Positions 10,165 to 54,343 of a stretch of DNA of 64,000 nucleotides are shown in pieces. Where the stretch lies: assembly GCA_024276465.1 (NCBI GenBank), contig JAJRXD010000013.1, positions 47,390 to 111,389 on the forward strand, in the 5' to 3' direction. The position numbers and the translations under genes are program-made. The stretch's first letter is position 1. Each line of letters begins with the position of its first letter. The DNA is from Deltaproteobacteria bacterium. GTDB taxonomy: Bacteria; Desulfobacterota; WTBG01; CAIYCZ01; CAIRTM01. Under the pieces are notes generated by a model. That model was not told where the DNA came from, ran no database searches, and saw only the letters and a program-made list of their open reading frames with translations.

Positions 10165-10198
10165 AAAAAGATGGTTTTTTGTATGCTGTTAAAACAGA

Positions 10199-10459
10199 CT
10201 ATTCCACAATCTCAAGAACAGATCTTTTTCTTAGTTTAGCTGAAGCCGCAGACAGAATTGTTCTGATAGACTGAGCAGTCCTTCCGTGTTTACCAATTAT
10301 CTTTCCCAAATCATCTTTTGCAACTCTTAATTCAATCACTGAAGTCTGTTCCCCCTCAATTTCACTGACTGAAACGTCATCCGGGTTATCAACAAGCGCC
10401 TGAGCAATGAATTTTACTAAGTCTTTCATAATAGCCTCCATCTGAAGATTAATTAGCAC
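10199..10459 (-). CDS. KH-domain RNA-binding protein (UPF0109/YlqC-like)
   Basis: [24 protein letters not shown] motif. Lies between rpsP and trmD. True start is probably the internal MKDLV. Confidence 0.85.
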
Positions 10460-10508
10460 TTTTTACTGCCAAAACCAATTCATGCAATACTAAAAACCTG
10501 AAGTCTGT

Positions 10509-10757
10509 TTATCCCTTAAAAACACCCCCTTTTTTTAAAATCTGGCCTGCTGATTGAGTTGGCTGAGCACCCTTTTTCAACCACGCTAAAGCTTTTTCTT
10601 TCTCAATGTTTATTTTTGCAGGATCGCTGCATGGATCATATGTCCCTATCCTTTCCAGAAACCTTCCATCTCTCGGGGAAGTATCTTTTGTGACCACTAT
10701 TCTGTAGAAAGGCTTCTTTTTTTTTCCATACCTGGCAAGTCGAATTTTAACAGACAT
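10509..10757 (-). CDS. rpsP: 30S ribosomal protein S16
   Basis: 82 aa. MSVKIRLARYGKKKKPFYRIVV. Confidence 0.95.
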   Translation of the reverse strand: MSVKIRLARYGKKKKPFYRIVVTKDTSPRDGRFLERIGTYDPCSDPAKINIEKEKALAWLKKGAQPTQSAGQILKKGGVFKG

Positions 10758-10972
10758 TTTTTAGGTTTCTCCTGAAGTCAGTTTTTTTAAAAAACAGATG
10801 CTTTTTCCAGCAATTACGAGTTTACCCTCTTTTTACAAACAGCAAATATTTTAGTCTATATTAAATAACAGTACTTTGTCAAGAGGAATTATGCTAAAAA
10901 TACCTTGAAAACCACAAAACCGTGTGCTAACTTTTTTAATCATCGTTCTATTTATATAGAAAAAAACATTGG

Positions 10973-15317: not shown

Positions 15318-16022
15318 TTAACTGGCAATGAGCTGATCAACCCTTTGCTGGAAAAAAGCAATATCTTCATCTGTGTATGGCTTTAATTGTTTCAGGCCTG
15401 GATCAATAATTGCTTCTGAAGGATGAAAGTTCTGAACCCTGAGCCGTGCGGCACCGTTCAGTTCCATTGCAAGCTTATAAATATCCTCCGTACAATGAAA
15501 AGAGGGTACTACCGTAACCCTGAACTCATATTTAACATTCCCCTCAATCAAAAGTCTGATACTTTTCTTGACTGTTGCCAGTATATTGGGGGTCTGTGTA
15601 ATATTGCAGTAACTTGTTTCATCAAGGCAGGATTTAACATCCATTGCAACATAGTCAATAAGCCCTTCTTCTATGAGGGCTTTCAGAATTTCAGGATTAC
15701 TGCCGTTTGTATCAAGCTTGGTCAGAAAACCTTCATTTTTTATGAATGCAAGAACATTTGTAAGTGAAGGATGCAGGGTGGGCTCTCCCCCTGATATGCA
15801 GACGCCGTCAACCCAGCCCTTCAGAGCTGAAAGGCGCTTTGTTATTTCGCGGAAATCTATGTCCTCTAAAGAATCATAGCGTAAAACAAGCTCAGCGTTA
15901 TGACAGTAGCGGCATCTGAAATTGCATCGCGGAAATACTATTATTGAACATATTTTTCCGGGCCAGTCAACAAACGAGGTTTCGACAAAGCCCTTAACTG
16001 GAATGCCTGATAATGTTTCCAT
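15318..16022 (-). CDS. nrdG: anaerobic ribonucleoside-triphosphate reductase activating protein (radical SAM)
   Basis: 234 aa. CNFRCRYCHN radical-SAM cluster motif. Immediately downstream of nrdD. Confidence 0.85.
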   Translation of the reverse strand: METLSGIPVKGFVETSFVDWPGKICSIIVFPRCNFRCRYCHNAELVLRYDSLEDIDFREITKRLSALKGWVDGVCISGGEPTLHPSLTNVLAFIKNEGFLTKLDTNGSNPEILKALIEEGLIDYVAMDVKSCLDETSYCNITQTPNILATVKKSIRLLIEGNVKYEFRVTVVPSFHCTEDIYKLAMELNGAARLRVQNFHPSEAIIDPGLKQLKPYTDEDIAFFQQRVDQLIAS

Positions 16023-16115: not shown

Positions 16116-16400
16116 TTAAATTCCTGCCATGATCTCCCGTATTTTTTGGGGGCTTGGCACTTCTCCCCGGAAATCTGCAACTGTGTTTTCTTCCTGGTCT
16201 TCAAGGATAAACGTGGGCGTTGACTGCACGCTGTGAAAAGAAGCTTCTGCCAGACCGCCAGCGCTTTCAACGTTATATTCTATAACATTATAACCCTCTT
16301 TCTTCAAGGCGTCTCCTAATTGTTTTGCCTGAGGACACCTGTGACAATTGCTTTTCACAAAAAGCTTTATAACCCCCATTTTATATTTCCTGTCTATCAC
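16116..16400 (-). CDS. glutaredoxin/thioredoxin-like small redox protein
   Basis: 94 aa. CHRC (CxxC) active-site motif in a thioredoxin-fold context. Embedded in the nrdD-nrdG operon. Confidence 0.6.
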   Translation of the reverse strand: MIDRKYKMGVIKLFVKSNCHRCPQAKQLGDALKKEGYNVIEYNVESAGGLAEASFHSVQSTPTFILEDQEENTVADFRGEVPSPQKIREIMAGI

Positions 16401-16833
16401 AAAAAAAACCTCTGTTTTTGTTTCTCTCTTTTAGTTCGCCAAGCTTTCCCTTGTTCCAGCCCGATATTTTTGTGAAATAACCCGTAATACGTGTTATACC
16501 ATCAACTTCCACTGCACCGCAATGAGGACATGAATCTCTCAGACCCCGCACTGTCCTGCCGCATTGCAGACAGTTGGTAAACTCGGGTGAAAAGGCAATC
16601 TGGTCATTCTGGGTTTCTCTGAAAACCTTCACTACAAAATTGGCAAGGGATTCTTTGGAAGGTTTTGACTCGCCAAGCCACACGTGTGTAATTGCCCCTG
16701 CCTCAATAATCGGGTGAAAAAGACCCTCGATTCTTACCCTGTCAACCGGATTATCCCGGGATGAAACCGGAAGACAGGTTGAGTTTGTATAGTATATTTC
16801 ACCATAGGGAATGCTTCCCTTTACATACCGCAC
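16381..16833 (-). CDS. nrdD: anaerobic ribonucleotide reductase NrdD, C-terminal glycyl-radical and zinc-ribbon fragment (separated from the body by an in-frame TAA)
   Basis: Glycyl radical motif RITGYF and CxxC...CxxC zinc ribbon. GTG start immediately after an in-frame TAA at 16840-16842. Same frame as the upstream 555-aa ORF. Confidence 0.8.
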   Translation of the reverse strand: MRYVKGSIPYGEIYYTNSTCLPVSSRDNPVDRVRIEGLFHPIIEAGAITHVWLGESKPSKESLANFVVKVFRETQNDQIAFSPEFTNCLQCGRTVRGLRDSCPHCGAVEVDGITRITGYFTKISGWNKGKLGELKERNKNRGFFCDRQEI

Positions 16834-16839
16834 TGCCTC

Positions 16840-18507
16840 TTACGGATAGTCTCTCAGATCAAGCTTTGCAAATCTGTATGCAGTACTTTCTGCGGGAGTC
16901 TGCTCAAGCACAAAATGCATATCATGCTGCCTGCTGAACTCGTTACACAAAAGATTCATCTCTGAAATAACCTTAAGTCCGAATTTGAGAGCTTTCTTTG
17001 ATTCATTGAGGTCATCTCCGGTATGAATCTTTACAAGTTCATTGAGCCCGACCATACCTATAAGATAGGAAGCACGGTGCATCCTCAGGTATTGAGTTCC
17101 ATCCTTGTTCATTGTAAGCAGAGCAAGTGGACCTGTTTCACCAAGGGCAAGAAGGTTTTCAATAAAAGTTTTTTTCTCCAAATGGGCTTTGACTGCAAGT
17201 TCCATCATGGAGCGAAGGTTCCTGAAAAGAATTTCCTCATCCTTTTCACTTCTGTATCCCAGCCTTGGAAGATTGATGGTTACATTCTGCAGTGCGCAGA
17301 ATCTCATTTTCCACGGCTGTTTTGCGTCATTCAAATCATCATCATTCAGTTTGAAGCTGAGGCGGCAGCACTCGGAAATTTTAGCTGTTTCCCCCCTGTC
17401 AAACACAAAATATGTAGTGCCTTTTTCGCTGGCAATATCACATATATGATTCAAAAAATCCTGATGCCCCCTGGTTTTGAAAAATTTTTCCGTAATATGG
17501 ACCAGCGGCTTGGGAAAGAAAAATGGTCGCCCCGTACCATCCCCCTCCTTATACACATCAAACAGTGCCCAGACAAACCTCTGGGCTTCCTTTTCATAGT
17601 CGCCATAGGTCTTGCCGGTAAATTTGCCCCCTGGTCCGATTGCAGGCACATCTTCAAAATGTTTGGGAACTTCCCAGTACAGGTTTATATCCGTAAAAAT
17701 AGCCTGTCCACCCCTTGCTACAGCCTGCTGTGAAAACTCATAAACCATCATCTGAGCAAGTTGCTTCACTTCTCTGTCGCTTCTGCCTTCAAGATACGGA
17801 GCAAAAAACAGATTTACGGCATCCCATCCAATAGCGCCGGCAAAATGGCTCTGAAGCGCTGCAGCAAACTTTACCATGTGGGCAAGGAGCACTTCAGGCT
17901 GCCTGGCAGGTCTGGCGTTTGAAAGAGAATTTGGAAGATTAAGGCCAAACTTTTTTATGTATTCCAGGGACTGTCCTGAACAGTAGGGTCTGTCAATAAA
18001 CCCCAGATCATGCAGATGAATGTCGCCTCTCATGTGAGCATCCCCTACCTTGGGAGAAAAAACTTTCAGCAGGGCATATTCTTTTTTGATTCCTTCAGCC
18101 AGGGTAAGGTTTGTTGCCTCCGGTCCATGGGGGACATTTGCATTTTCCTTGTTGGGATGAAGAATGAGCTGATCTACATCATAAAGCGGAACACCAAGGC
18201 GGGTATGCTTCTTTCTTGCATCTTCCATTCCCCGTTCAATAAGCTTTGAATCAACCAGTTCTCTTACAAGAGGTGCAGTAACATATTTAATTTTTGAGGT
18301 GGTTATGATTTCCTGGACTTCATGGCTGATCTGTTCAGATGTTTCGATATCTACACCAGCTTCCCTGACAAGAGCATCAACAATTTTCTGCCGGTCCCAC
18401 CCGGATAAGTCTTCACTGGAAGTTCTGACAAAGAGTGTTAAATCTGTTGTTTCACTGGAAATGCCCCTGCTGTTTTGGTGTTCTTTCAGATCTAATAAAG
18501 ACCCCAT
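16840..18507 (-). CDS. nrdD: anaerobic ribonucleoside-triphosphate reductase NrdD, N-terminal 555-aa body (ATP-cone plus catalytic barrel)
   Basis: Class III RNR similarity along the full length. Ends at TAA in frame with the glycyl-radical fragment (555+2+150 aa versus about 710 aa for intact NrdD). Confidence 0.85.
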   Translation of the reverse strand: MGSLLDLKEHQNSRGISSETTDLTLFVRTSSEDLSGWDRQKIVDALVREAGVDIETSEQISHEVQEIITTSKIKYVTAPLVRELVDSKLIERGMEDARKKHTRLGVPLYDVDQLILHPNKENANVPHGPEATNLTLAEGIKKEYALLKVFSPKVGDAHMRGDIHLHDLGFIDRPYCSGQSLEYIKKFGLNLPNSLSNARPARQPEVLLAHMVKFAAALQSHFAGAIGWDAVNLFFAPYLEGRSDREVKQLAQMMVYEFSQQAVARGGQAIFTDINLYWEVPKHFEDVPAIGPGGKFTGKTYGDYEKEAQRFVWALFDVYKEGDGTGRPFFFPKPLVHITEKFFKTRGHQDFLNHICDIASEKGTTYFVFDRGETAKISECCRLSFKLNDDDLNDAKQPWKMRFCALQNVTINLPRLGYRSEKDEEILFRNLRSMMELAVKAHLEKKTFIENLLALGETGPLALLTMNKDGTQYLRMHRASYLIGMVGLNELVKIHTGDDLNESKKALKFGLKVISEMNLLCNEFSRQHDMHFVLEQTPAESTAYRFAKLDLRDYP

Positions 18508-18565: not shown

Positions 18566-18581
18566 ACACAACATATGGGGT
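18566..18581. promoter_or_regulatory. candidate NrdR box upstream of nrdD
   Basis: acacaacatatggggt matches 13 of 16 positions of the acaCwAtATaTwGtgt consensus. A single site with no partner box seen. Confidence 0.25.
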
Positions 18582-19116: not shown

Positions 19117-19608
19117 TTAAAGGTTCTTGATTTTGCTGATAATATTGGTTGTTGAAACCCCGTCCATCAGAGGAACTGAAATTATACTGCCTCCTGAGCT
19201 TTCTACTATCTCCCTGCCAACAATATTATTTGCATGCCAGTCCCCCCCTTTTACTAAAATATGCGGCTCGATACCTTTAATAACTTTCAGCGGGTCCGGC
19301 TCATTGAAAATTACCACATAATCAACTGATTCCAGAGCTGCAATAACCTCTGCGCGCTGCTGCTGCGGGATTACAGGCCTTTCCACGCCTTTTAATGTCC
19401 TTATTGAGTGGTCGCTGTTCAGGGCTACAATGAGCAGATCCCCCAACTTTTTGGCTTCTTCAAGAACCCTGACATGACCGGCATGGATAAGATCAAAACA
19501 ACCGTTGGTAAAGACAACTTTTTTTCCCTGTTCTTTCAGTTTTTGAACAAGCATTCTCAGATCGTCCAGGGCTTTAATTTTGTTCTTTAATCTCCCTGAC
19601 TGATACAT
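19117..19608 (-). CDS. D-glycero-beta-D-manno-heptose 1-phosphate adenylyltransferase (RfaE domain II / cytidylyltransferase-like)
   Basis: 163 aa. VVFTNGCFDLIHAGHV HxGH nucleotidyltransferase motif. Confidence 0.8.
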   Translation of the reverse strand: MYQSGRLKNKIKALDDLRMLVQKLKEQGKKVVFTNGCFDLIHAGHVRVLEEAKKLGDLLIVALNSDHSIRTLKGVERPVIPQQQRAEVIAALESVDYVVIFNEPDPLKVIKGIEPHILVKGGDWHANNIVGREIVESSGGSIISVPLMDGVSTTNIISKIKNL

Positions 19609-21440
19609 CTTTGCGCCTCATTGTAAGTTGTTCTTCCTTTTAAAATTTTGACAATTACATTTTCCTTCAACAACGTCATACCCTGTTTATGTGCAGTTCT
19701 TTTTATCACTTCAGATGACTCATTCCGGATAATGAGCTTTTTTATATCTTCTGTAACAGTAAGAATTTCAAACACACCCTCTCTGCCAAAATATCCTGTG
19801 TTTCTGCATTGACGACATCCCCTTCCTTTTTTTAACTGCACGACATTGTCCTTATAATCATGAGGAAGAGTAAACCCGAGACTGGAAAAATCATCCCTGG
19901 AAAGGGGAAATGTTTCATTACAGTGTGGGCAAACAATTCTTATAAGGCGCTGTGCTACAATTCCAAGAAGTGTGGAACTTATTAAAAAAGGCTCTATCCC
20001 AAGATCAACAAGCCTTGTTATGGCGGATGCTGCATCATTTGTATGAAGTGTGCTTAAAACCAGATGCCCTGTGAGTGCTGCCTGAATGGCATTTCTTGCT
20101 GTTTCCTGGTCCCGGATCTCTCCAATCATTATGATATCAGGGTCCTGTCTTAAAATGTTTCTGAGGATTGATGCAAAAGTGATATCCACTGCCGGCTGGA
20201 CAGCAATCTGGTTATAGTCCTCGCACACCATTTCAATCGGGTCTTCAACCGTAGTAATGTTTTTTTCAGACGTGGAAAGAAACTTCAGAGAGGAATAAAG
20301 GGTTGTGGTTTTTCCGCTCCCCGTAGGGCCGGTAACCAGTATAATTCCATGAGGCTGTTCTAAAAAACCGCGAAAATGTATCAGCTCGCTTGAAAAAAAA
20401 CCCAGATTTTCCAAATCCTGGAAAAGAACATCAGGGTTCAGAACCCTGAGAACAGCCTTTTCGCCAAAAACTACGGGAATAGTAGAAACTCTTATTTCAA
20501 CATCCCTGTCCTGATCCTTCAACTTGATCCTGCCGTCCTGAGGTTTCCTTTTTTCAGCTATGTTAAGGCGGGATTGAGATTTAATCCTTGAAATAACCGC
20601 ATTGTGAACAACAATGGGCATGGAATAGGTGGTGTGGAGAACACCGTCAATTCTCAGTCTGACAATGCTCCTGTCCCTTTTGGGTTCAATATGTATATCG
20701 CTTGCACGCTGTTCAAAGGCATAGCGAAAAAGATATTCAACAGCATTCTTTATGTATTTGTCCGTAGATTCAATCTCGCTGATTGTCCCAAGTTTTGAAT
20801 ACTGTTCCAGATTGCCGATATCAGCAAAGGGTGTAACAAGTTCTTTCTCTGCCATGGCAACAGATTGTTTAAAACCGTAAAACTCTCTTATCAGTTTTAA
20901 TATATCTGATTTTGTGCTTATTACAGGGGCTACCTTCATTTTTTGAACTTTGTCAATGTCTTCCAGCACCTCCCTGTTAAGGGGATCTGCCATTGCAATC
21001 TTCAGTTCTCCGTCCTCAACCGCAACAGGAACAACAAGGTTTTTAATGGCAAATGCCCTGGAAATTGTTCTGGTTACAACGTCAGGATCAAGTTCCAATG
21101 GATCTATTTTTTTAAAAGGTATTCCGAAAGAGGAGGCAACCTCCTTCATCACTGTCTCTTCAGTGATTAATCCTTTTTTGTTTTTTTTATCGTAAATTTT
21201 TAAGGACGCAATAATATCTGAGGGTGTAATGGCAAAGCCGTGGGGGGTACTGTTCAGATCACCTTTAAGATCATAAAGTTTCTTGAGTTTCTCTCTCTGC
21301 TCAGTTTCACTGGACAAAATCAGTTTGTTTTGTTCATCTGTGATGAGCTTCTGCCTGAGCAATATTTTGCAAACCTGTTTAAGTTCAAGGTTTTTTTTCA
21401 TCTGTTTCCTCTCTCCCTGATCTCTTTTCATATACCACAT
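19587..21440 (-). CDS. type II secretion / type IV pilus assembly ATPase, GspE/PilB family
   Basis: 617 aa. T2SSE N-terminal domain, Walker A GPTGSGKTTT and a tetracysteine motif (CPHC...CRQC). Confidence 0.9.
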   Translation of the reverse strand: MWYMKRDQGERKQMKKNLELKQVCKILLRQKLITDEQNKLILSSETEQREKLKKLYDLKGDLNSTPHGFAITPSDIIASLKIYDKKNKKGLITEETVMKEVASSFGIPFKKIDPLELDPDVVTRTISRAFAIKNLVVPVAVEDGELKIAMADPLNREVLEDIDKVQKMKVAPVISTKSDILKLIREFYGFKQSVAMAEKELVTPFADIGNLEQYSKLGTISEIESTDKYIKNAVEYLFRYAFEQRASDIHIEPKRDRSIVRLRIDGVLHTTYSMPIVVHNAVISRIKSQSRLNIAEKRKPQDGRIKLKDQDRDVEIRVSTIPVVFGEKAVLRVLNPDVLFQDLENLGFFSSELIHFRGFLEQPHGIILVTGPTGSGKTTTLYSSLKFLSTSEKNITTVEDPIEMVCEDYNQIAVQPAVDITFASILRNILRQDPDIIMIGEIRDQETARNAIQAALTGHLVLSTLHTNDAASAITRLVDLGIEPFLISSTLLGIVAQRLIRIVCPHCNETFPLSRDDFSSLGFTLPHDYKDNVVQLKKGRGCRQCRNTGYFGREGVFEILTVTEDIKKLIIRNESSEVIKRTAHKQGMTLLKENVIVKILKGRTTYNEAQRCISQGD

Positions 21441-21556
21441 AAAAAGAAATTTTCAAACTTATGATAACCTGAACTGAGCGATTCTAAAAAAACATGATTT
21501 CACTAACTGTCTTTATCTGAAAAACCGTTCAGATCCGGGATAATTCACGCAAAAAA

Positions 21557-21575
21557 AGCCCCTTTATCAGGGGCT
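21557..21575 (-). terminator. rho-independent terminator for the minus-strand pilus operon
   Basis: The minus strand reads agcccctgataaaggggct followed by a T-run. Lies directly 3' of the 21629-22051 gene. Confidence 0.6.
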
Positions 21576-21628
21576 TGGTAAATGCAGCACAAAGCATGTC
21601 CACAATAAAAAGTAATAAAAAAACCGGA

Positions 21629-22051
21629 TTATTCAGGATATCGCACAAATGGTTTTTTCATGGTAAAACGACTGGAAGTGCGTTTAGCATATTCCTTTAC
21701 TTTTAGCCTTACAAGTTCAGGATCAATATTTTTTCTGTTTTTGCGAAACCTTATCTCAGCCACACATGGTATCTTAAGGTCTTTGAGTGAAATTTTCTTT
21801 CCGTCAATATCTATAATGCTTGAAAATGGTGTTACCATCAGGTAATTTGACGCAATTTCAAACCTGTGATTTGTTATAATTACACAGTTTGGTGCTTTTC
21901 CTGAAACCTCTGCCATGTTTTTGCCCAGAGACTCTTCCCCGAACAGCTGTGCAGATGCCCTGCTTCCGGACACGGATGCAATGAGGCCATATAATAATGC
22001 AATAGAAGCAAGTACTGATAAAACTCTTTTAAATATTTTTTCCTGTTCCAT
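21629..22051 (-). CDS. hypothetical secreted protein (PilY2-like position downstream of pilY1)
   Basis: 140 aa. N-terminal signal peptide and no recognisable domain. 4-nt gap to the pilY1 stop. Confidence 0.5.
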   Translation of the reverse strand: MEQEKIFKRVLSVLASIALLYGLIASVSGSRASAQLFGEESLGKNMAEVSGKAPNCVIITNHRFEIASNYLMVTPFSSIIDIDGKKISLKDLKIPCVAEIRFRKNRKNIDPELVRLKVKEYAKRTSSRFTMKKPFVRYPE

Positions 22052-22056
22052 GTTTA

Positions 22057-25000
22057 TTACTCCTCTCTCCAGTAAAGTGGTGCACTTGTATGGCCGCTGA
22101 CATAGACCTGAATCTGCTGGATAACTCCTGTGCTCAGCTGGCCGTAAGCAGTGGCTCCTTCCTCTTTCCCAACGTGTATTCCAAAACTTGATGACAGGCC
22201 TTCACCCAGTGCTATAACATCCAGAATAGTACTCTGCGATTTATCACCCACTATGCGTCTTTTATAGGCAGTGCCTGTCTCGTAATAAAGCGCAAACAGC
22301 CTGGCCATACCCCCATACCCGCATATGTTGCTGTTGGGTGCAAAAGTGGGTGTCAGCAGAATGCCACCCAGTATTGACGGTTTGCTTAACACACGCTCAG
22401 AGGGCCCTGAGCCAAGGCATGTTCCGTCCGATGCCAAAGCATGGGAGCACAGCGTTTTATACCACCCGTCATAAATATCCTTTCGAGCCTCTTCTACAAG
22501 TTCGACAAAATTACTTACACCGGCAATACCTTCAACAACCCCGCCTTTTTTCACAGTAACTATGTTTGCATCAAAAAGATCTCCAAGGCTTCGCTCACAT
22601 TCAAGTCCGTATTGGCCATAGCAGGTATTGTTATCTACATTGAAGAAAGGGTCCTTGATTCCAAATATATAATTCTGATCTGTTGTTGTTTTATCTGCTT
22701 CCTCTATATAACGCCCTGTCCCTGCAAAAACCCAGCAGTTATCCCTTGAGTCGATACTTAAGGTGAAGGGTGCTGTTAACGGCGCAGGGGAATCAAAGAG
22801 TTTTATCATGGGGTCCCAGTTAAGAGGGTTGTCCTGATAGTCAGTGCTGAATGGATCATATTCACTTCCAAGCTGAGGCACTGTTATTTTGTACATGCGG
22901 CCATTCCAGTCAGAGCCCTGCTTATAGCTTGCACCGACATACACGGCATCGACATTATAATTCATCCCCTTGTCAAGAGCTACAGGGCTGTTCATATAAG
23001 CATTGGCCTCGCCGGTAACATAGTCTCTCAACATCTGTCCTGTAAGCATATCAACAATGTATACATGTCCGTTATGGGTGCTCGATCCGTCATAATCATC
23101 AGGTCCGGATCCGATTGCCAAGAACCAGCTGTCCTGGACCTTTACAACACAGGGCATATTGATTGCAAAACCAAGACCAGGATATGTTTTTTCCCACAGA
23201 AATCGCGGTTCGCGGGGGTTGGTAATATCAAGCGCAAAAAAGCTTGGGGAAAATATCTGTCCCCCTGCTGTAATTTGCTTGCCCCCCATTCTCATTCCGC
23301 CTATCAGGATTGTTCCCCAGCCGTTGGGATGAGCTGTGGAGTTGTCGTTAAAGATCCTGGCATCAACAACCTTTGTCTGCAGATCCACATATGCAACATG
23401 GGTATAGTTTTCATATGGCAGCCACTTAAGATGCGGGAGCAGGTTCTGGGGAATAAAAGCCCACAGCTCATCCCCTATTGCTATGTCCCCTATACCAAGA
23501 CTGTCAGGGATTGAAGTTGTGTACCCTGCAATTTCTGAGATCTTCTTAAAACTTTGATTGTCAGAGTCATACACCCCTGAGGTGAAAGCATGCAGCATCC
23601 CGTCATTTGCGCCAACGTACACCACTGTTTCACGGTTTTTATACTGTACAAAATAGTTCTGATAGGTCAAATCGTCATAAAGAAGGCCGTAATTTTCAAC
23701 CGGTTTGGAGATTGACACCGGCGTGGAATGAACGATGTCTCCAAGTTTCCACAAACGACCATCCTCCATTGTTCTGCCTCTGAGAACCGGACCTCCTTCA
23801 TACTCTGCTGAATTATCATCAACTCCGCGGATAAAATAGATAAGGTTGCTAACCCGGGTGGTGTTGTCAGTTCCCCCAAGATAGCTCCAGGTTGCATTGT
23901 CTTCTACTCCTAAAAAATGTCCGATCTGGGATGCATTAGCTGTTTTAAATTCAATAAATTTAGAGTTTGGATCAGCTTCGGTGCCGTCTCCAACATAGGT
24001 GAAAATATGCCTGTTGGATGCTGCCATGTCTGCGAGGTTGTTTCCAGTCTCGAAAACAGGAATTACTTCATCCAGAGATATAATCTCGCTTTCGTTATCA
24101 GTGCTGGGGTATGGGTTGTCAGCACTGACACTATAGCGTTTGACCTTTGTTTCGCCGGTTTCAGGGTCAAGGAAAAAGGTTATGATATCGTCTTCAGACA
24201 GGTCAAGGCCCTTGTTTCCGTTTGTATCTTCCCGTGTATTTCCATACCTGTCAATCCAGAGAGACTGAAGATACCCCACCCATTTTATTTCATCCAGACC
24301 ACTTGTAACACTGGGTTTGAAGTAGGCCTGGACCACTGTTCCCTCACCCTCACCCTTTGTAGCAAGAACAGAAACAGCAGTTCCTGATGCTGCCCGTTTC
24401 AGGATGTCACTTATTGCTGCAAGGAGCTCCTTCTCAAGCTGATAACCGTCCTGGGCCTCAAAGTAATTATCCGGAATACCATTCCCGTCGTCATCCCATT
24501 CGGAATCAAGGTCAGGTATCTTATTATCGTTTTTGTCAATGAATCCCCCGTTTTTTGCTGCATCCTTCAGAAGGTCACGGGCGTTTTGTTCGTTTCCGAA
24601 AGCATAGACCGTATAGAGGATAAGATTCTGCTCGCCGTCAAGATCAGGATCACGAAGGTCGTTGGTTCGAGCATAAAGCGCAATATCATCAAGGTAGTCA
24701 GAGCCGTTGCTGCTGTATAATCGGGTGGTTTCACTATTGTCCCCGTCATAGTTTTTCAGGTTAGCCGGGATGTCAAGATCCTGTGTGGGCGCACCGTCTG
24801 TCAGGAACAGACAGAAGCTTTTCGCACAGGGAATTGCATCACCGTTTTTATAGTAGGGATCCGAACTGCTGCCTTTGTTTGCAACAAAATTACCGTTTGG
24901 GTACCAGTTGTTGGAAGTATACATTGAACCATGCTGCTGCATAAAATAGTTCATTGCAACATAATAGTTTTCTGCCAGGGGAGTCCACGTGTTGCACCCC

Positions 25001-26382
25001 CTGGTTTCGATATTTGACACAAGAGTGTCAATGGCAGTGCCAATGGGATTGGCAACCCCTCCGGCTGCATCTGAATAGAACCACTGGTTTCCCCATCGCG
25101 CCTTGTCTCCGACGCGCTGCAGAATTCCCGCAATATTTCCATTAAGAAAATTATCCGGCTCATCTGCCTGGTCTTTTTTAACCCTTAAATTGTATGTAAA
25201 CAAGGGGCTGGACCACGGTGAACTGTCGTCATCCACATACAGATTGCCATATCTGAGGCCAAACCAGTAGAATCCGCTGTGGGGTGTAAAGTCAGTTCCG
25301 TCCAGGTATCTGGAAAAACATCGTGTGGTCTGTGCGGGTATTTCTCCCTGCAGAACTGTTAACCCGCTTCCATCCCTGATTTCAGCCCGTCCGCCTACCA
25401 GAACCTTTCTGAGTACATCAATCCTGCGGGTGGTGCACCAGTTAAGCCAGTTGCCGTCCCAGTCTCCGTTAGTATCTCTTTCAAACAGGCCGTCAACACT
25501 GTTATAGGTATATCTGGTTTCAGGATCAAAGTATCCGTAGTAGACGGTGGTGCATGCTTCATCCCCTGGCACATCAAGCTCTATATGCAAAACAGGAGCT
25601 CTTGAGCTGCCGCCATCGCGGGCGTATGCATCACGCTTGCCGGTTGCGCCGGTACGTTCAAAGATAAAGAGCATGGAGTTGCCGTCAGCCCAGCCCGGCC
25701 TGTTTACTGTTTCCTGGACAATTGAGGTTATATCAGGGGTGCGTGTATCATTGTCGTTTTGCTGATGAGCCCAGTCAGGAAGATTGTTCCAGGCAACAGA
25801 TGCTGTGGTTCTGGGCCGGCCTGAGATGTCGCTGTTTGAATTGTTGAAATTGCCTGGATTATCATCAGCCTGTCCGTAAATCACAAGGGATGTTGGCTCT
25901 CCGGTATGATCACCCCCACGCCTTCCCGTAAACTGTATATAGGCTCTTTTAATAACTTCCCCCTGCGGTATGGGCACATTCTGGAAACGCACACCCACTA
26001 AGGTTTGGTTATAAGTCGACCCGCTGTAATAGCCGGCAAAGTCAAGGTCGCTGCTGCTCCTCCAGGAATTTTGCTGAACAACTCTTTCCTCTGCGTCATC
26101 CGTGTAGGAGGAGACAGTTATGTTAAAAATATTGCTGTCTTTGGCACATGCGTATGGCTCCGGGACCTGGTTGTAATTTCCGGGAAATGTGCCGTACGCG
26201 TTAAAGTTCATGCTGCCGGAGTTGTCAAGTATGATATGGATGTTCGGAGTAGCGGCATTTGTCTGAAAGATAGGATAGCTCGTGTAGTCATCTATTATAG
26301 GCTCAAGAGCATGAAGGGATGTGCCCCATGCACCTGCAAAGATTAAGAATGAAATTATCTGGTAAAAAGTTTTCTTTTCCAT
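22057..26382 (-). CDS. pilY1: type IV pilus tip-associated adhesin PilY1-like protein with N-terminal vWA domain
   Basis: 1441 aa. Signal peptide, vWA MIDAS motif (ILDNSGSMNF) and a C-terminal PilY1-type beta-propeller region. Downstream of pilX in a minor-pilin operon. Confidence 0.8.
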   Translation of the reverse strand: MEKKTFYQIISFLIFAGAWGTSLHALEPIIDDYTSYPIFQTNAATPNIHIILDNSGSMNFNAYGTFPGNYNQVPEPYACAKDSNIFNITVSSYTDDAEERVVQQNSWRSSSDLDFAGYYSGSTYNQTLVGVRFQNVPIPQGEVIKRAYIQFTGRRGGDHTGEPTSLVIYGQADDNPGNFNNSNSDISGRPRTTASVAWNNLPDWAHQQNDNDTRTPDITSIVQETVNRPGWADGNSMLFIFERTGATGKRDAYARDGGSSRAPVLHIELDVPGDEACTTVYYGYFDPETRYTYNSVDGLFERDTNGDWDGNWLNWCTTRRIDVLRKVLVGGRAEIRDGSGLTVLQGEIPAQTTRCFSRYLDGTDFTPHSGFYWFGLRYGNLYVDDDSSPWSSPLFTYNLRVKKDQADEPDNFLNGNIAGILQRVGDKARWGNQWFYSDAAGGVANPIGTAIDTLVSNIETRGCNTWTPLAENYYVAMNYFMQQHGSMYTSNNWYPNGNFVANKGSSSDPYYKNGDAIPCAKSFCLFLTDGAPTQDLDIPANLKNYDGDNSETTRLYSSNGSDYLDDIALYARTNDLRDPDLDGEQNLILYTVYAFGNEQNARDLLKDAAKNGGFIDKNDNKIPDLDSEWDDDGNGIPDNYFEAQDGYQLEKELLAAISDILKRAASGTAVSVLATKGEGEGTVVQAYFKPSVTSGLDEIKWVGYLQSLWIDRYGNTREDTNGNKGLDLSEDDIITFFLDPETGETKVKRYSVSADNPYPSTDNESEIISLDEVIPVFETGNNLADMAASNRHIFTYVGDGTEADPNSKFIEFKTANASQIGHFLGVEDNATWSYLGGTDNTTRVSNLIYFIRGVDDNSAEYEGGPVLRGRTMEDGRLWKLGDIVHSTPVSISKPVENYGLLYDDLTYQNYFVQYKNRETVVYVGANDGMLHAFTSGVYDSDNQSFKKISEIAGYTTSIPDSLGIGDIAIGDELWAFIPQNLLPHLKWLPYENYTHVAYVDLQTKVVDARIFNDNSTAHPNGWGTILIGGMRMGGKQITAGGQIFSPSFFALDITNPREPRFLWEKTYPGLGFAINMPCVVKVQDSWFLAIGSGPDDYDGSSTHNGHVYIVDMLTGQMLRDYVTGEANAYMNSPVALDKGMNYNVDAVYVGASYKQGSDWNGRMYKITVPQLGSEYDPFSTDYQDNPLNWDPMIKLFDSPAPLTAPFTLSIDSRDNCWVFAGTGRYIEEADKTTTDQNYIFGIKDPFFNVDNNTCYGQYGLECERSLGDLFDANIVTVKKGGVVEGIAGVSNFVELVEEARKDIYDGWYKTLCSHALASDGTCLGSGPSERVLSKPSILGGILLTPTFAPNSNICGYGGMARLFALYYETGTAYKRRIVGDKSQSTILDVIALGEGLSSSFGIHVGKEEGATAYGQLSTGVIQQIQVYVSGHTSAPLYWREE

Positions 26383-26420
26383 GGTTGAGTCTCCTGGAAA
26401 TAAAATTAGACTGCGTACAG

Positions 26421-27011
26421 TTAAAATCTTGGAATAAACTGGAATCCCAGTACCTGGTTTGTAAAAACAGCACTGCTGTCGGGCAGCCCGCCAACAGAGT
26501 CTATGTTGTAAATAACCCTGTGCGTGGCAACACCAATGCCCTGTGCCCCGGACCCGAATTCCGCACCCCCACCGGCAAGTGGCCTGACAGCCACTTTGTC
26601 AACGTCAACAATGGCGTTAAATGGTGCCAGGAGCTGAATGTCAGGCCCAACATGAACAGAATCTGTCTGGTTATCCTTGTCCCAGTCACCTGTGCTGGCA
26701 GTGACATCCTTTTTTTCAAAAAGAAAGCTGCCGTCTATTACTTTAATAATATTGTTGTCATCATAAAAATAGTTGTCTGAAACCGAGTCATAACCGCCCA
26801 TGAGTTCTATAAGCTCTGTGCCCACGGTCATTCCTGATTCTGTATTGTAGAAAGCAATTTTGTGGAATTTGTCATTTGCAGAAATGTCTATCTCGGTTGT
26901 GCTTGTCATCATGGATGCAACACCAATCATGGAAAGAAGGGCCAGCATAAATATGGACATCACCAGCACCATTCCTTCTTCATTTGCCCCGACAATTTTT
27001 CTTTGTTTCAT
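26421..27011 (-). CDS. pilX: type IV pilus minor pilin PilX-like
   Basis: 196 aa. PilX_N-type N-terminus MKQRKIVGANEEGMVLVMSIFMLALL. Confidence 0.7.
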   Translation of the reverse strand: MKQRKIVGANEEGMVLVMSIFMLALLSMIGVASMMTSTTEIDISANDKFHKIAFYNTESGMTVGTELIELMGGYDSVSDNYFYDDNNIIKVIDGSFLFEKKDVTASTGDWDKDNQTDSVHVGPDIQLLAPFNAIVDVDKVAVRPLAGGGAEFGSGAQGIGVATHRVIYNIDSVGGLPDSSAVFTNQVLGFQFIPRF

Positions 27012-27037
27012 GCGTGATTCCTTTCAATACTGTTATC

Positions 27038-27484
27038 TTAATTCCACCGTGTAGAACGAATATAAGAAAAAGTTATCCTTTTTTTCTCCTTTTGCTCTCC
27101 TGAAACCCCGCTGGGAGTGACAGTTATCCCTATTGTTGTAAGGTTTTCAAGTGGATAACCAGCAGTTGCACGATACTGTGTCTGCAGGGGTCTTGATGTA
27201 CAGGGAGCTGGTCCATCCTGCCATGTCCCGTCATTCATGTCAGGATCAGTAAAAAGGGTGTCAGGAACAAGGCCTTCCCCTGTGCGAATGGGCCGGCTCA
27301 TTAAGTCCTCTATCCACTCCTCGGCAACAGCAACTCTCTCGGTCAGCCTGTTTGCAGAATTTGTTCCTTCAACAGCCCTTGTCTGCATGGCAGCAGCGCT
27401 CATCAATCCAACACCCAGGATCATTAACGCTATAACTACTTCAAGAATTGTAAATCCTGATTCCCCGGTTTTGATTGTTGACAT
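27038..27484 (-). CDS. pilV: type IV pilus minor pilin PilV-like (prepilin-type N-terminal methylation domain)
   Basis: GFTILEVVIALMILG prepilin motif. Probable start at the internal MSTIK rather than the ORF-track start at 27532. Confidence 0.7.
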   Translation of the reverse strand: MSTIKTGESGFTILEVVIALMILGVGLMSAAAMQTRAVEGTNSANRLTERVAVAEEWIEDLMSRPIRTGEGLVPDTLFTDPDMNDGTWQDGPAPCTSRPLQTQYRATAGYPLENLTTIGITVTPSGVSGEQKEKKRITFSYIRSTRWN

Positions 27485-27541
27485 ATGCCTGTCTCCCCGT
27501 ACATGTTTTTTGTAAAGTTTTAATAGTTTCATTTATGTTTT

Positions 27542-28264
27542 TTACGGGGCAGAAACTGTCCCCATATTTCTGCAATTTATTTTTGTAACTGTCAGCCTTC
27601 TTTTAAATGAATCATTAAACGGCCCCCAGGCAGGAGGTCTGTCTGTTAAACCGGGAGTAAGGTTATTGTCATTTGAAGCCTGGGTATAAACTGTATTATT
27701 CGTATAATCCTTTACAGGGTTTGCACTTCTGACCAGCATGGAAATAAAAACAGATCTTATCCGGGACATTCGATCAGCATCAGGGGGGGCTAATGTTGCA
27801 GTTCCATTGTCCAGGACATAGCAGAACTCCAGAGCTTCAACATTGTCACACACGGGCTGAAAGCCTCCTGCGCCATTATACTGTCTTCCCAGGTTGCAGG
27901 GAAAGCCATCTGCAATCCCGTCTGTATCATTGTCATTTGTCAGTGCATACTGGACTGTTTCCTTGGGGCCGTCACCAATTGCTCCACTGGCATTTTCGTC
28001 TACCTGGAAGTCAAGCCGTGCAATATTTGCTGTTGTAATAGTTGCATCTGCCTCCCCATCCGGATCATAGCCAGCCATCTTAATATCTATGGATAGAAAA
28101 TAGAGCCCTGCCCTGAGGCTCTGCTGGAGTTCAACCACCTGCTCCTGCTTTAAATATGATTTTTGCTGAAAATAATATGTTTGATAAATGCCTGTCATTA
28201 CAATTCCGAATATTGCCATTGCAATCATTACCTCAATCAGGGTAAACCCATTCTTTTTTTCCAT
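27542..28264 (-). CDS. pilW: type IV pilus minor pilin PilW-like
   Basis: 240 aa. GFTLIEVMIAMAIFGIVMTGIYQTYYFQQ matches the PilW N-terminus. Confidence 0.7.
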   Translation of the reverse strand: MEKKNGFTLIEVMIAMAIFGIVMTGIYQTYYFQQKSYLKQEQVVELQQSLRAGLYFLSIDIKMAGYDPDGEADATITTANIARLDFQVDENASGAIGDGPKETVQYALTNDNDTDGIADGFPCNLGRQYNGAGGFQPVCDNVEALEFCYVLDNGTATLAPPDADRMSRIRSVFISMLVRSANPVKDYTNNTVYTQASNDNNLTPGLTDRPPAWGPFNDSFKRRLTVTKINCRNMGTVSAP

Positions 28265-28303
28265 TTTATTAAAGCATCCTTTCGTAAATTGGCTTTAATT
28301 GCT

Positions 28304-28831
28304 TTATTCCCAACTGCTTCCTCCCCAGTGTCTCAGCACAATACTGCCTGACAGATTCCTTATGCCCACAGCATAAGCATCCCCCTGGTTATTGGTTAAA
28401 TACACATATCCAAGCTTATTGCTGAGTCCTCTTGAATTGAAAGCAACTTTGTCACCGGTAAAACTGACAGGGTCACCAGTTCCTGTTCCGGGAACATTGT
28501 CAGTGGCATTGCCGAAACCAAATGCTACCCCGCTGCCATAGCGCTCTGAAAGGCTTCGGATGTTTCCGTTATGTTCAACAGGGAACCAGGTTCCATCAAT
28601 ACTGTATCTGTTAGTTGCTGTATCAAAAACAAGTGTAATATCCCTTTGTTCCTTAACAGCAACAGATCGAGCGTGGCGCATTTTTGAAGTCAGATCTCTG
28701 GCTGCATTCTTTACACGATACTTTGGAAGACCGGTTACAATGTTGGGAGCGCTGATTGCTCCTAAGATTACAATTATGGCAATAACTACCATCAACTCAA
28801 CAAGCGAAAACCCTTTCCTGTTTTTCAACAT
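28304..28831 (-). CDS. type IV pilin FimT/FimU-like (GspH domain) protein
   Basis: 175 aa. KGFSLVELMVVIAIIVILGAI prepilin N-terminal methylation motif. Confidence 0.7.
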   Translation of the reverse strand: MLKNRKGFSLVELMVVIAIIVILGAISAPNIVTGLPKYRVKNAARDLTSKMRHARSVAVKEQRDITLVFDTATNRYSIDGTWFPVEHNGNIRSLSERYGSGVAFGFGNATDNVPGTGTGDPVSFTGDKVAFNSRGLSNKLGYVYLTNNQGDAYAVGIRNLSGSIVLRHWGGSSWE

Positions 28832-32034: not shown

Positions 32035-32740
32035 GTTTTCCTCCCTGCTTTTTTTGTTTGTTGTTATAATCGGTCCTTTTAAATCAAACTTGATGGCTTC
32101 GCAGAAAGTTCAAGTCCCTGGCTGGCCTGGATCTGTGATTGGTGTTGTGCAGCATCCCTGGTCATTGCAACGTACAGCTTAGCCCACTTTATCCCTGAGG
32201 ATTTTTGTGCCTTGAATTTGAAGCTTTTTGTTCGGCCATTGAATTTTGACTTTTTACTGTTTTGTCAAGATGAAACTATTATAAAAAAACAGATTTGTAC
32301 TGCAAAAACCTGTTTTTAAAAAAATATTTTGATACCATATGAAGGAGTAAAGTTCAAGTAATATTTTCATTTAACACCTTGTATACATGCAGTATTTTTT
32401 TTAGAGGGGGGCCGACAGCCGATCTTAATAACAAAGGGTATCTATGAAGGGATATTTGAGGGTGTTACTAAGTTTTTAAAATTATATTAAGATCGACTGC
32501 CGTATATGAAAAAGCTAAAATTTAATCACTGTCATTTGCTGAAATATATATGCAGTATCTGTGCCATCTAAGCAAAAAAACACGACAAGACCTTAATCAT
32601 TTGAAATAACATTATTTTTTTGTATAATCCCATGAACTGCTCTCCTTTCCTTTTATCATTGAAAACAATAGAATTTGTCATTTTGGCAATTTAACGCTTT
32701 TACCAGGTACTGAAAGGACAATTTGTCAAAAAATATCATT

Positions 32741-36264: not shown

Positions 36265-36727
36265 TAACCTCTCAGCCTTTTTATGACCATTTTATAAACA
36301 GTTTTGGTGAATAATAATTAACATAGTAGTACGTTCTGTAATTTTTTATTGCATACGAACCTGTCAATGACACCCTGACATACCACTTTATTTATGAAAC
36401 GCTCTACTATTGTGTTTTTGCTTCTTAAAATTTGCAGAATACCTGCACAAATTTTTTATAAAAATATAAAGCTCTATCAACTTTAATATTATATCATACT
36501 ATCTCTCATGACAAACGCAAAAAACAAAAAAGAGATAATCTGTTAATAATTCACGAAAAGCAATATTTACCCATGCGCAGTATCCTGAAATTGATTTTTG
36601 AAAACCTGCAAAGCAGCGCACATCAGTGATATTCTGTACCATACAGGCAATAGTCAATCTGGATTATTAACACAAAATTAATTTCACCTTTATTAACTAT
36701 TAATACGATGCAGGTAGATTTATTTGT

Positions 36728-36888
36728 AAGTAGTGGGTGAACGAAAACCCTGATTAAGGTTGGAAACCGAAAAATAATTTTCTGTAGGAGCGCCTTCAGG
36801 CGCGATATCAGTTCTGTTTTTCGCGCCTGAAGGCGCTCCTACAGCATAAAATCAGGACTTTTCGGGCAGCCACTAAGTAGTGGGTGAA
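36728..36888. repeat. 161-bp palindromic element: 23-bp perfect inverted repeat flanked by 15-bp direct repeats
   Basis: IR ctgtaggagcgccttcaggcgcg (36782-36804) pairs with cgcgcctgaaggcgctcctacag (36822-36844). DR taagtagtgggtgaa at 36728-36742 and 36874-36888. Confidence 0.6.
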
Positions 36889-36987
36889 TAAAAATCCTTA
36901 CACAGAGTGAGGAATCAAGCATGTATCTTTTTTCAGGTTTTATCCTGATTTTTGTTGAGACTGTACAAAAGGAGTATCTGCGAACAT

Positions 36988-42619: not shown

Positions 42620-42650
42620 ACAAAAAAGGAAATTCTTTTTTGCTTCTCAG
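42620..42650. terminator. imperfect hairpin between convergent phoR and the DUF45 gene
   Basis: gaagacaaaaaaggaaattcttttttgcttc is an inverted repeat. Confidence 0.35.
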
Positions 42651-43399
42651 ATTATGACTTTTTCCAGGCGTTGCTTACGCTTTTCCCAGTCCGGCAGAAT
42701 TCGTCCGAGAAGCTGGTAAAATTTCCTGTCATGTTGCGGACAGATCAGATGACACAGTTCATGTATAATCACATAATCAATACAGTGGATAGGTGCCTTG
42801 ACAAGTTCTGTGTTCAACATGATGTTGCCATTGCCAGAACAGCTGCCCCATCGTTTTTTTATACGGCGATAGCGCACTTGCGGTTCTGTTACGCCCATCC
42901 TCACAAAGGCTTGCAGGTAATAAGCAAGTCTTCTTGTAAGCAAATCCCTGGCATGTTCCGAATACCAATCAAGCATAAGTGCTTTGGCTTTTTCCCTTTT
43001 GTTTGGATCTGGTAACTGCATTTCAAAAAAACGACCGAGCAATCGTACTCGTGGTGTATCGCCACGTCGTGTTCTCAAACGATACTGCCGCCCCAAATAA
43101 TAATGAGTTTCACCGGAGACAAATTTTCGTTCCATAGGAAAGGACTGAAACTGCTCAAAAAAATCAAGTTGCCGGGCTATCCATGATGCCCGCTTTACAA
43201 GTCGCTGCTGAACAACTTCCAGCTCATATCCTGCAGGTGTTTTTGCCACGATTTTAAGGTCTGGGTACACTGTAATGGAAAGACGTTTGCGCTCGCTCCA
43301 CATAACATCCACAGCGAACTGTCGTCGTCCAAAACTTATTTTTATTTTTTCGCTTTTCACGCCAGTCACGGTTTCCTGATCCTGGCAATATCCAGACAC
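42647..43399 (-). CDS. DUF45/YgjP-like (WLM/M48-like) zinc metallohydrolase
   Basis: 250 aa. HELCHL HExxH motif. The family commonly trails hsdR in Type I RM loci. Confidence 0.75.
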   Translation of the reverse strand: MSGYCQDQETVTGVKSEKIKISFGRRQFAVDVMWSERKRLSITVYPDLKIVAKTPAGYELEVVQQRLVKRASWIARQLDFFEQFQSFPMERKFVSGETHYYLGRQYRLRTRRGDTPRVRLLGRFFEMQLPDPNKREKAKALMLDWYSEHARDLLTRRLAYYLQAFVRMGVTEPQVRYRRIKKRWGSCSGNGNIMLNTELVKAPIHCIDYVIIHELCHLICPQHDRKFYQLLGRILPDWEKRKQRLEKVII

Positions 43400-48095: not shown

Positions 48096-48105
48096 ATTTT
48101 CACCT

Positions 48106-54340: not shown

Positions 54341-54343
54341 TTT

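Follow-up and report, generated by a model that had tools for sequence, protein, structure and literature searches.

Organisation of the nrdD-trx-nrdG locus

The window, i.e. the whole stretch of 64,000 nucleotides analysed here, harbours a standard nrdD-trx-nrdG operon for a class III anaerobic ribonucleotide reductase (RNR) of an uncultured Thermodesulfobacteriota lineage, in which nrdD is spread over two consecutive open reading frames (ORFs) separated by a TAA codon (Table 1). On the minus strand, the junction reads ...GAC TAT CCG TAA GAG GCA GTG CGG... This bears out the initial annotation, which described a 555-residue NrdD body ending in DLRDYP at the TAA and, two codons further on and in the same frame, a GTG that opens a 150-codon ORF. 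The combined length had been likened to that of an intact class III enzyme, and rightly so, as the two parts amount to 708 codons compared with 700-726 aa in relatives.

Table 1. Features of the interrupted nrdD gene and of its operon partners (positions are those of the window)
Feature	Position	Strand	Description
nrdD 5' part	16843..18507	minus	555 codons; weak ATP-cone and most of the 10-stranded barrel, including the ECCRL finger-loop motif
555-aa ORF counted with its own stop	16840-18507	minus	Ends DLRDYP at the TAA
In-frame TAA	16840..16842	minus	In place of an Asp/Glu codon, in a variable surface linker
GAG GCA (Glu-Ala)	16834..16839	minus	Two sense codons separating the TAA from the GTG
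nrdD 3' part	16381..16833	minus	150-codon ORF; GTG start at 16833-16831
Small thioredoxin-fold gene (trx)	16116..16379	minus	Intact; CHRC motif; between nrdD and nrdG; PF13192, E 4e-8
nrdG	15318..16022	minus	Intact activase (radical SAM); TIGR02495 NrdG2, 164 bits (cut-off 131)

The Pfam NRDD model (562 positions) is matched from 1 to 430 by the first part (E 3e-106) and from 437 to 560 by the second (E 8e-38). Similarly, the two parts cover positions 1-447 and 455-580 of TIGR02487 (NrdD, 581 positions), with 313 and 114 bits, respectively; the sum of 427 exceeds the cut-off of 326, which neither piece reaches by itself. As profile coverage is contiguous across both ORFs, they are pieces of one gene, and a chance pairing is excluded. 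It is only jointly that they match the entire catalytic subunit; with the TAA in between, the Cys finger loop and the Gly loop do not lie on one uninterrupted chain. The ATP-cone at the beginning of the first part is a weak match (Pfam, E 4e-4).

The operon partners are those expected of a class III RNR. A same-strand nrdG gene is present in 74 of 80 genome loci, and full-length same-strand matches to the trx gene are found downstream of nrdD in 61 of them. The activase gene had been called intact, in agreement with its score (Table 1). As for the small partner, first described as a glutaredoxin, it is a thioredoxin-fold protein with a CHRC motif and at most a putative glutaredoxin. Upstream of nrdD, a single match to the NrdR box (13 of 16 positions) was seen, which by itself is not significant.

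The C-terminal fragment comprises part of the catalytic barrel

Encoded in the 150-codon part are the YYTNS motif, the final strand of the barrel (ITHVWL), a CxxC-x10-CxxC Zn ribbon (codons 16519-16572) and, as the glycyl-radical loop, RITGYF, whose radical Gly is encoded at 16480-16482. Both RITGYF and the C-x2-C-x10-C-x2-C signature are invariant in the alignment, and all other invariant columns are also kept in this part. The arrangement of ribbon and loop agrees with the description of class III RNRs (PMC4493059). According to the secondary structure of an intact homologue, the site of the stop is a variable linker that accepts indels and connects a helix to a hairpin. The fragment begins 120 residues upstream of the Gly and takes in strand 607-612, helix 618-631 and strand 636-646 of the model. 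The break is within the catalytic barrel rather than at a domain boundary. The stop was initially placed immediately before the glycyl-radical domain, which is only roughly right, given that 120 codons separate it from the radical Gly and about 90 from the Zn ribbon. As its chain ends short of the final barrel strand, the ribbon and the radical glycine, the 555-aa product would be inactive by itself.

A small ORF carrying a glycyl-radical loop calls to mind GrcA (YfiD), and a candidate listed at the outset was a separately expressed, trans-acting spare module of this kind. In this reading it would rescue oxygen-damaged NrdD. We find this hardly credible. GrcA is the counterpart of only the terminal Gly-radical domain of pyruvate formate-lyase (PFL), and it is a conserved stand-alone gene acting on an otherwise complete enzyme. 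In contrast, the fragment described here begins well before the Gly-radical domain and includes barrel elements, notably the barrel's last strand and flanking helices. Its partner, without the ITHVWL strand and the YYTNS hairpin, leaves no complete enzyme to rescue. No conserved stand-alone homologue was found in relatives. Proteins of about 150 aa on long contigs were numerous among the matches to the 150-aa piece, but the contexts examined were long-read contigs with several frameshifts (L001-L003), a truncation at a contig end (P0078), a frameshifted gene (L129) and a gene with a TAG unrelated to the present stop (L126). These matches were accordingly discarded as support for a conserved split.

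The stop codon is found in a single assembly

We compared the junction with 125 related loci. In 117 of them the tblastn alignment passes through the site without a stop, the residue aligned to it being P, E, D, Q, K, A, S or G; the eight non-spanning loci are five contig-end truncations and three frameshifted long-read contigs. The homologous codon in the nearest relatives is GAG (L005), GAT (L006 and L029), GAC (L004) or GAA (L084), and a single G-to-T change turns GAA into TAA. This is as expected of a pseudogene made by nonsense mutation, whose stop takes the place of a sense codon of orthologues and can be reached by one substitution. A split at the same site, which an evolved split gene of the NrdJa/NrdJb type would share with its relatives, occurs in none of the 117 spanning loci. 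The comparison with relatives suggested at the outset as a check on a genuine split gene thus speaks against one.

The protein data agree. Among the best 120 matches in a collection of 5.8 billion proteins, the 555-aa form is represented only by P0121, a singleton cluster that is 100% identical and is the window's own entry. Of the next 119 matches, 117 are 700-726 aa long and the remaining two 562 and 622 aa. The closest listed proteins (88-89% identity, 703-705 aa) have D or E at the stop site, as exemplified by P0125, which reads DLRDYPDEAV across it. Identity of the 555-aa part to the 80 genome loci ranges from 73 to 87%. The premature TAA is therefore lineage-specific, found in no relative examined and one substitution step away from the ancestral codon.

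We also looked for relaxed constraint in the C-terminal part. Identity ratios, NG86 dN/dS and relative-rate counts gave no such signal and no excess of window-specific changes, with low power because dS is saturated. Thus, dN to L004 is 0.068 for the C-terminal part versus 0.084 for the N-terminal part, a comparison of low power for the same reason, dS to the nearest relatives being saturated. That the C-terminal part is no more diverged than the N-terminal part fits a recent event. The perfect preservation of this part, of trx and of nrdG would be equally expected if the split were tolerated. The lesion is accordingly recent, an error, or tolerated.

The putative restart region is ancestral coding sequence

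The AGAGG motif reported 2 nt upstream of the GTG is indeed at that position, but it does not hold up as a ribosome-binding site. Its first A is the final base of the TAA, and the rest lies in GAG GCA; the same GAG GCN GTN sequence (E-A-V) is present in the intact relatives L006 and L029. Motif and GTG together are thus ancestral Glu-Ala-Val coding sequence. In addition, the spacing of 2 nt is poor compared with the 3-9 nt seen at most genes checked in the window. There is, in short, no dedicated initiation region for a second cistron.

Discussion

Very probably, this one-off stop is either a recent, lineage-specific nonsense mutation or a consensus error, and not an evolved split gene. The linker codon, ancestrally GAN and most simply GAA (Glu), reads TAA in this single assembly, most probably because of a genuine G-to-T nonsense change in the genotype that was sequenced, and less probably because of a wrong consensus base. 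In that scenario translation would stop after residue 555, and the downstream 150-codon frame would have stayed open solely because the event is too young for further decay to have set in, not as an evolved second cistron. Among the candidates listed in the initial annotation, we favour sequencing error and recent nonsense mutation, the stop being unique, one step from GAA or GAN, and without signs of long-term decay.

A sequencing or assembly error, with GAA or a similar sense codon as the real codon and an intact nrdD, is a sub-case of this explanation, the stop not being an evolved feature under it either; we regard it as possible but on the unlikely side. One base change leads from the ancestral codon to the lesion, which is present in one assembly only, the rest of the operon is intact, and scattered cases of a broken nrdD are frequent in public metagenome-assembled genomes (MAGs). 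However, those copies mostly result from homopolymer indels in long-read contigs in which neighbouring genes are broken as well, whereas the present lesion is a clean substitution, and a search among about 54 ORFs found no further broken gene. Nor did the window contain another recognisable split gene: where ORFs of the same strand adjoin, each is a complete gene distinct from its neighbour, which is unlike an error-riddled assembly. Substitution errors are rare in consensus assemblies, whereas bacterial genomes often contain genuine nonsense pseudogenes. The stop thus appears to be a real mutation rather than an error. Conspecific sequences that would part the two were not found, with exact-sequence look-ups of both protein parts and of P0121 matching no contig and identity peaking at 86% in the metagenome scan, 87% in the genome scan and 88-89% in the protein collection; with relatives only 86-89% identical and no second assembly of the species, error and real mutation are inseparable.

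It is tempting to speculate that the gene works in two pieces, with termination at the TAA, re-initiation at the GTG 6 nt downstream, and non-covalent assembly of the 555-aa and 150-aa chains into a barrel that NrdG can activate. The predicted restart product would start (f)M/V-RYVKGSIPYGEIYYTNSTCLPVSSR (Val-Arg-Tyr-Val-Lys), and restarts after nonsense codons in lacI are a classic precedent. The stop lies in a linker that tolerates variation and indels, a GTG with an SD-like AGAGG follows within two codons, every invariant residue of the C-terminal part is kept and both trx and nrdG are intact. Functional split RNRs are also known, namely NrdJa/NrdJb in Pseudomonas (PMC4520616) and NrdA-a/NrdA-b in phage Aeh1 (PMC3045599). 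Nevertheless, the Aeh1 pieces needed special tail sequences (PMC3045599), which are absent here, and the cut is within the catalytic barrel and not between domains. No relative has the split, hence no sign of selection for it, and the SD-like motif and GTG are ancestral coding sequence whose 2-nt spacing is far below the optimum. Optimal SD spacing is about 5-9 nt. Altogether, we deem a functional two-piece NrdD unlikely. That the TAA is real and that termination-reinitiation yields two polypeptides forming an active class III RNR, an arrangement that would be unprecedented for NrdD in cellular organisms, is more doubtful still.

Readthrough or recoding of the TAA to give a full-length NrdD of 708 aa, also among the initial candidates, is highly improbable. 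Both parts share a frame and the position accepts many residues in relatives, but TAA is the commonest genuine stop in the window, where it ends 30 of 54 ORFs, and it is therefore not reassigned. A search for tRNAs and RNA elements in the window found none, i.e. neither a suppressor nor any other tRNA and no element recognised by Rfam, and none of the relatives is interrupted by a stop at this site. UAA is moreover the least leaky stop in bacteria. Selenocysteine or pyrrolysine recoding was ruled out, as the codon is TAA and not TGA or TAG and aligns with Asp, Glu or Pro and not with Cys. Ribosomal hopping was rejected as well, since inspection of the sequence around the stop revealed no pair of matching codons for take-off and landing with which YYTNS would be kept.

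Returning to the favoured reading, a recent nonsense mutation or a consensus error, nrdD should be flagged as interrupted or as a pseudogene, or the base should be rechecked. More generally, singleton in-frame stops in MAGs call for caution and should not be taken as evidence of recoding or of split genes. As it stands, the interrupted nrdD matters little. If, alternatively, the organism relies on the TAA allele for anaerobic dNTP synthesis, the glycyl-radical barrel would tolerate a backbone break in the helix-hairpin linker before YYTNS. Such a tolerated break would be of modest interest for the engineering of RNRs and glycyl-radical enzymes and for the onset of gene fission. A two-piece NrdD would then represent gene fission at its very start, with a cut inside the catalytic barrel and without added interaction tails.

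Comparison with known systems

The closest counterparts are the intact nrdD-trx-nrdG operons of Thermodesulfobacteriota (L004, L005; P0122-P0130), with 73-89% identity over the 555-aa part and the same gene order and strand. Their NrdD proteins share the ECCRL finger-loop motif, the Zn ribbon and the RITGYF loop with the window's gene, but each is encoded by a single ORF of 700-726 aa, in which Asp or Glu occupies the position of the window's TAA. Interrupted nrdD genes in other MAGs, with an in-frame TAG (L126) or frameshifts (L129, L050 and L066), are likewise one-off lesions in an otherwise conserved gene. They differ in position or in lesion type, and none of them has the TAA described here.

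Among established split RNRs, the class II NrdJa/NrdJb of Pseudomonas aeruginosa and other Proteobacteria is similar in that the catalytic subunit is encoded by two consecutive ORFs of an operon, with the smaller piece being C-terminal (PMC4520616). It is the only split RNR known in non-viral organisms; its split is at one site conserved across many species and has been shown to be functional, with NrdJb as a separable thiol-exchange module (PMC4520616). In contrast, the split of the window's nrdD is a singleton located inside the barrel, and its function is only putative. RNR genes in fragments are also found in phages, as in NrdA-a/NrdA-b of Aeromonas phage Aeh1 (PMC3045599) and in split phage nrdD genes, nrdD being the RNR gene most often split in phages (PMC3653736). 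In those cases the gene was broken up by introns, inteins or homing-endonuclease insertions, and the Aeh1 pieces rely on acquired tails (PMC3045599, PMC3653736), whereas the nrdD gene described here carries no insert and differs by one substituted base only.

An in-frame stop divides nrdD

As the initial annotation had proposed, the nrdD gene of the window is split by an in-frame TAA (minus strand, ...GAT CTG AGA GAC TAT CCG TAA GAG GCA GTG CGG TAT GTA AAG GGA...). The Pfam NRDD profile is matched at positions 1-430 in the 555-codon ORF (E 3e-106) and 437-560 in the 150-codon ORF (E 8e-38), and TIGR02487 at 1-447 and 455-580, respectively. As these matches are contiguous, the two ORFs are adjoining pieces of one nrdD of 708 codons in total. 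Judged by its sequence, the gene belongs to the NrdD family and is an interrupted copy as encoded. The stop does interrupt nrdD, but placing it 'immediately before the glycyl-radical domain' was imprecise: counted within the 150-aa piece, RITGYF has its radical Gly at residue 118, and the cysteines of the Zn ribbon stand at 88, 91, 102 and 105.

Features of the interrupted nrdD locus
Feature	Position	Strand and location	Remarks
nrdD N part	ATG at 18507, TAA stop at 16840-16842	minus	555 codons
nrdD C part	GTG 16833-16831, end 16381	minus	150 codons, same frame, two codons past the TAA
Small thioredoxin-fold gene	16116-16379/16400	minus, downstream of nrdD	PF13192, CHRC motif
nrdG	15318-16022	minus, downstream of nrdD	TIGR02495, 164 bits vs cut-off 131

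The thioredoxin-fold gene keeps its position between nrdD and nrdG in 61 of 80 relatives. The NrdD finger-loop motif is ECCRL, as against SCCR in T. maritima and MGCR in T4. Together, this neighbour and the motif hint at a thiol-dependent NrdD subtype rather than a formate-dependent one. Upstream, 59 nt from the nrdD ATG, the 16-mer ACACAACATATGGGGT (18566-18581) matches what we take to be the NrdR-box consensus at 13 of 16 positions; with two such 16-mers in the window for 0.76 expected, this match alone is not significant.

The cut falls within the predicted barrel

We used an AlphaFold2 model of the intact homologue P0125 (55 sequences, mean pLDDT 70, 75-90 near the site), whose numbering equals that of the window protein up to residue 555. 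Residue 556 sits between helix 540-553/short helix 555-558 on one side and, on the other, a hairpin (563-565/570-572) leading into YYTNS. Gaps in the alignment with Prevotella copri NrdD (8p23) indicate that the length of this linker is variable. Farther downstream, the model has helix 587-594, strand 607-612 (ITHVWL), helix 618-631 and strand 636-646, followed by the Zn ribbon and the loop of Gly676. According to PMC4493059, the Zn ribbon is an insertion after the final strand of the barrel and ahead of the Gly loop, and the 150-aa piece should therefore hold elements of the barrel core. By itself, the 555-aa piece is predicted to be an incomplete barrel without the radical site, and any activity would require reassembly of both chains.

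Relatives do not share the stop

Scanning one genome per GTDB species yielded 80 loci (73-87% identity), all from uncultured Thermodesulfobacteriota or 'delta proteobacteria' MAGs. A 196-aa query spanning the junction, run against metagenomes, gave 42 further loci, the best at 86% identity. None of the searches turned up a conspecific sequence against which to check the TAA base. The comparison with relatives that had been called for is clear: by tblastn with the junction query, 117 of 125 loci cross the position without any stop, and none of these 117 has the TAA split. The other eight do not span the site, being five contig-end truncations and three frameshifted long-read contigs. The residue aligned to the TAA is P in 58 loci, E in 24, D in 18, Q in five, K in four, A in three, S in two and G in one, with a gap in two. 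The nearest clade reads DLRD[FY][PT]-[DE]-[EK]A, and the homologous codon is GAG (L005), GAT (L006, L029), GAC (L004, L011, L085-87) or GAA (L084); TAA is thus one G-to-T step from GAA.

In a collection of 5.8 billion proteins, the best match to the 555-aa part is P0121, a 555-aa, 100% identical singleton cluster on one NCBI contig of 117,585 bp, presumably the one from which the window was taken. Among the next 119 matches, 117 are 700-726 aa long and the other two 562 and 622 aa. The closest non-self proteins (88-89% identity) have 703-705 aa and D or E at the stop site; P0125 reads DLRDYP-D-EAV.

With the 150-aa piece as query, many proteins of 140-260 aa were found, most of them end fragments on 1-3 kb contigs; six matches on long contigs were looked at. 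Two related loci (L001, L002) have nrdD in three pieces each, and in L003 nrdD ORFs of 555 and 153 aa overlap and the adjacent adh_short gene is split too. These three are long-read assemblies with indels, in which fragmentation also affects nrdD itself or the adjoining gene. P0078 is cut short by the contig end, and L129 has an nrdD frameshift. L126 (GCA_052915985.1, contig JBLFLA010449769.1) carries an in-frame TAG at 1691-1693, at a different site (MHE*KKALKFG; relatives have a Ser codon there), which yields ORFs of 485 and 188 aa in the same frame. Broken nrdD copies elsewhere are sporadic and heterogeneous, and the window's TAA is in none of the six.

On four long-read MAG contigs, nrdD frameshifts also fall within the variable linker in which the window has its TAA (L001:3985-4000, L002:3980-3990, L050:5620-5640, L066:5665-5685). 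They lie in homopolymer-rich sequence (GGAAAAGG, TTTTCCCCC, GGGCCCAAAG), and we read them as indel errors.

Age of the lesion and quality of the window

The C part retains all invariant columns. Measured against the two nearest relatives, its divergence is 0.97 times that of the N part; the median of this ratio is 1.42 for window pairs against 1.31 among intact relatives (5-95% range 1.05-1.60). Compared with L004, the C part has a dN of 0.068 and the N part one of 0.084, and window-specific substitutions show no excess in the C part (4 v 6, 3 v 8, 6 v 4). These measures show no trace of relaxed constraint on the C part; with dS saturated towards every available relative, however, they say no more than that the lesion is either recent (on this long branch), an error or tolerated.

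The window looks like a clean assembly: it is free of Ns, and its long ORFs, about 54 in number, reach 1441 aa. TAA is its commonest stop (30 of 54 ORFs), and no other in-frame stop in the window is flanked by homologous halves. Suspicious adjacent ORF pairs were rejected as split genes, being distinct complete genes.

No tRNA or Rfam element was found in the window. Three stretches of ~700-800 nt (10165-10972, 32035-32740, 36265-36951) have no ORF of at least 90 aa, no tRNA and no Rfam match at gathering threshold. A probable type IV pilus locus lies on the minus strand at 19587-28831, where a 617-aa sequence reads as a GspE-like ATPase and a 1441-aa protein has a PilY1 domain (Pfam), together with several small ORFs. 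Also on the minus strand, tightly overlapping ORFs (4-nt ATGA-type overlaps) form a long run over 42647-54928; the N-terminus of one resembles an HsdM-type methylase (VWRACDTFRG).

Readings of the stop

The TAA is most probably a one-off, non-conserved lesion. The two candidates of this kind in the initial annotation, sequencing error and recent nonsense mutation, are jointly favoured, the stop being unshared and one step from GAA. We lean towards a recent, real nonsense mutation in the sequenced genotype, whose default consequence would be a null nrdD. A consensus base error is a distinctly weaker candidate: clean consensus assemblies rarely contain substitution errors, whereas bacterial genomes often carry pseudogenes made by nonsense mutation.

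Termination at the TAA might be followed by restart at the GTG and fragment complementation, giving some activity. Reinitiation after nonsense codons has a classic precedent in lacI. However, the AGAGG upstream of the GTG found no support as a ribosome-binding site. Intact relatives L006 and L029 have GAG-GCN-GTN (Glu-Ala-Val) right after the site, as P0125 has Glu-Ala-Val, so that AGAGG and the Val codon are inherited coding sequence. Moreover, GAGG lies 2 nt from the GTG, against mostly 3-9 nt at other window genes with a motif (AGGAGG 4 nt, GAGG 7 nt, AGGAG 9 nt). Sequence inspection revealed no other in-frame start codon between the TAA and the conserved YYTNS motif. We consider such a restart improbable. 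Readthrough of the TAA found no support and is effectively excluded. The same applies, slightly more strongly still, to a C part acting in trans as a GrcA/YfiD-like spare part: the fragment would carry barrel elements, and the upstream product, an incomplete barrel in the model, would leave no complete enzyme to repair.

Comparison with known split reductases

Functional split RNRs are known; according to PMC4520616, NrdJa/NrdJb is the only one found in non-viral organisms. NrdA-a/b of phage Aeh1 depend on acquired tails for function (PMC3045599), and in phages nrdD often carries introns or comparable inserts that interrupt it (PMC3653736). Unlike such interrupted phage genes, the window nrdD contains no insert. 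In contrast to evolved split RNRs, for which a conserved split site is the defining test, its split site is not conserved and its C part has no dedicated initiation region. Set beside these systems, the interruption is nothing new in kind.
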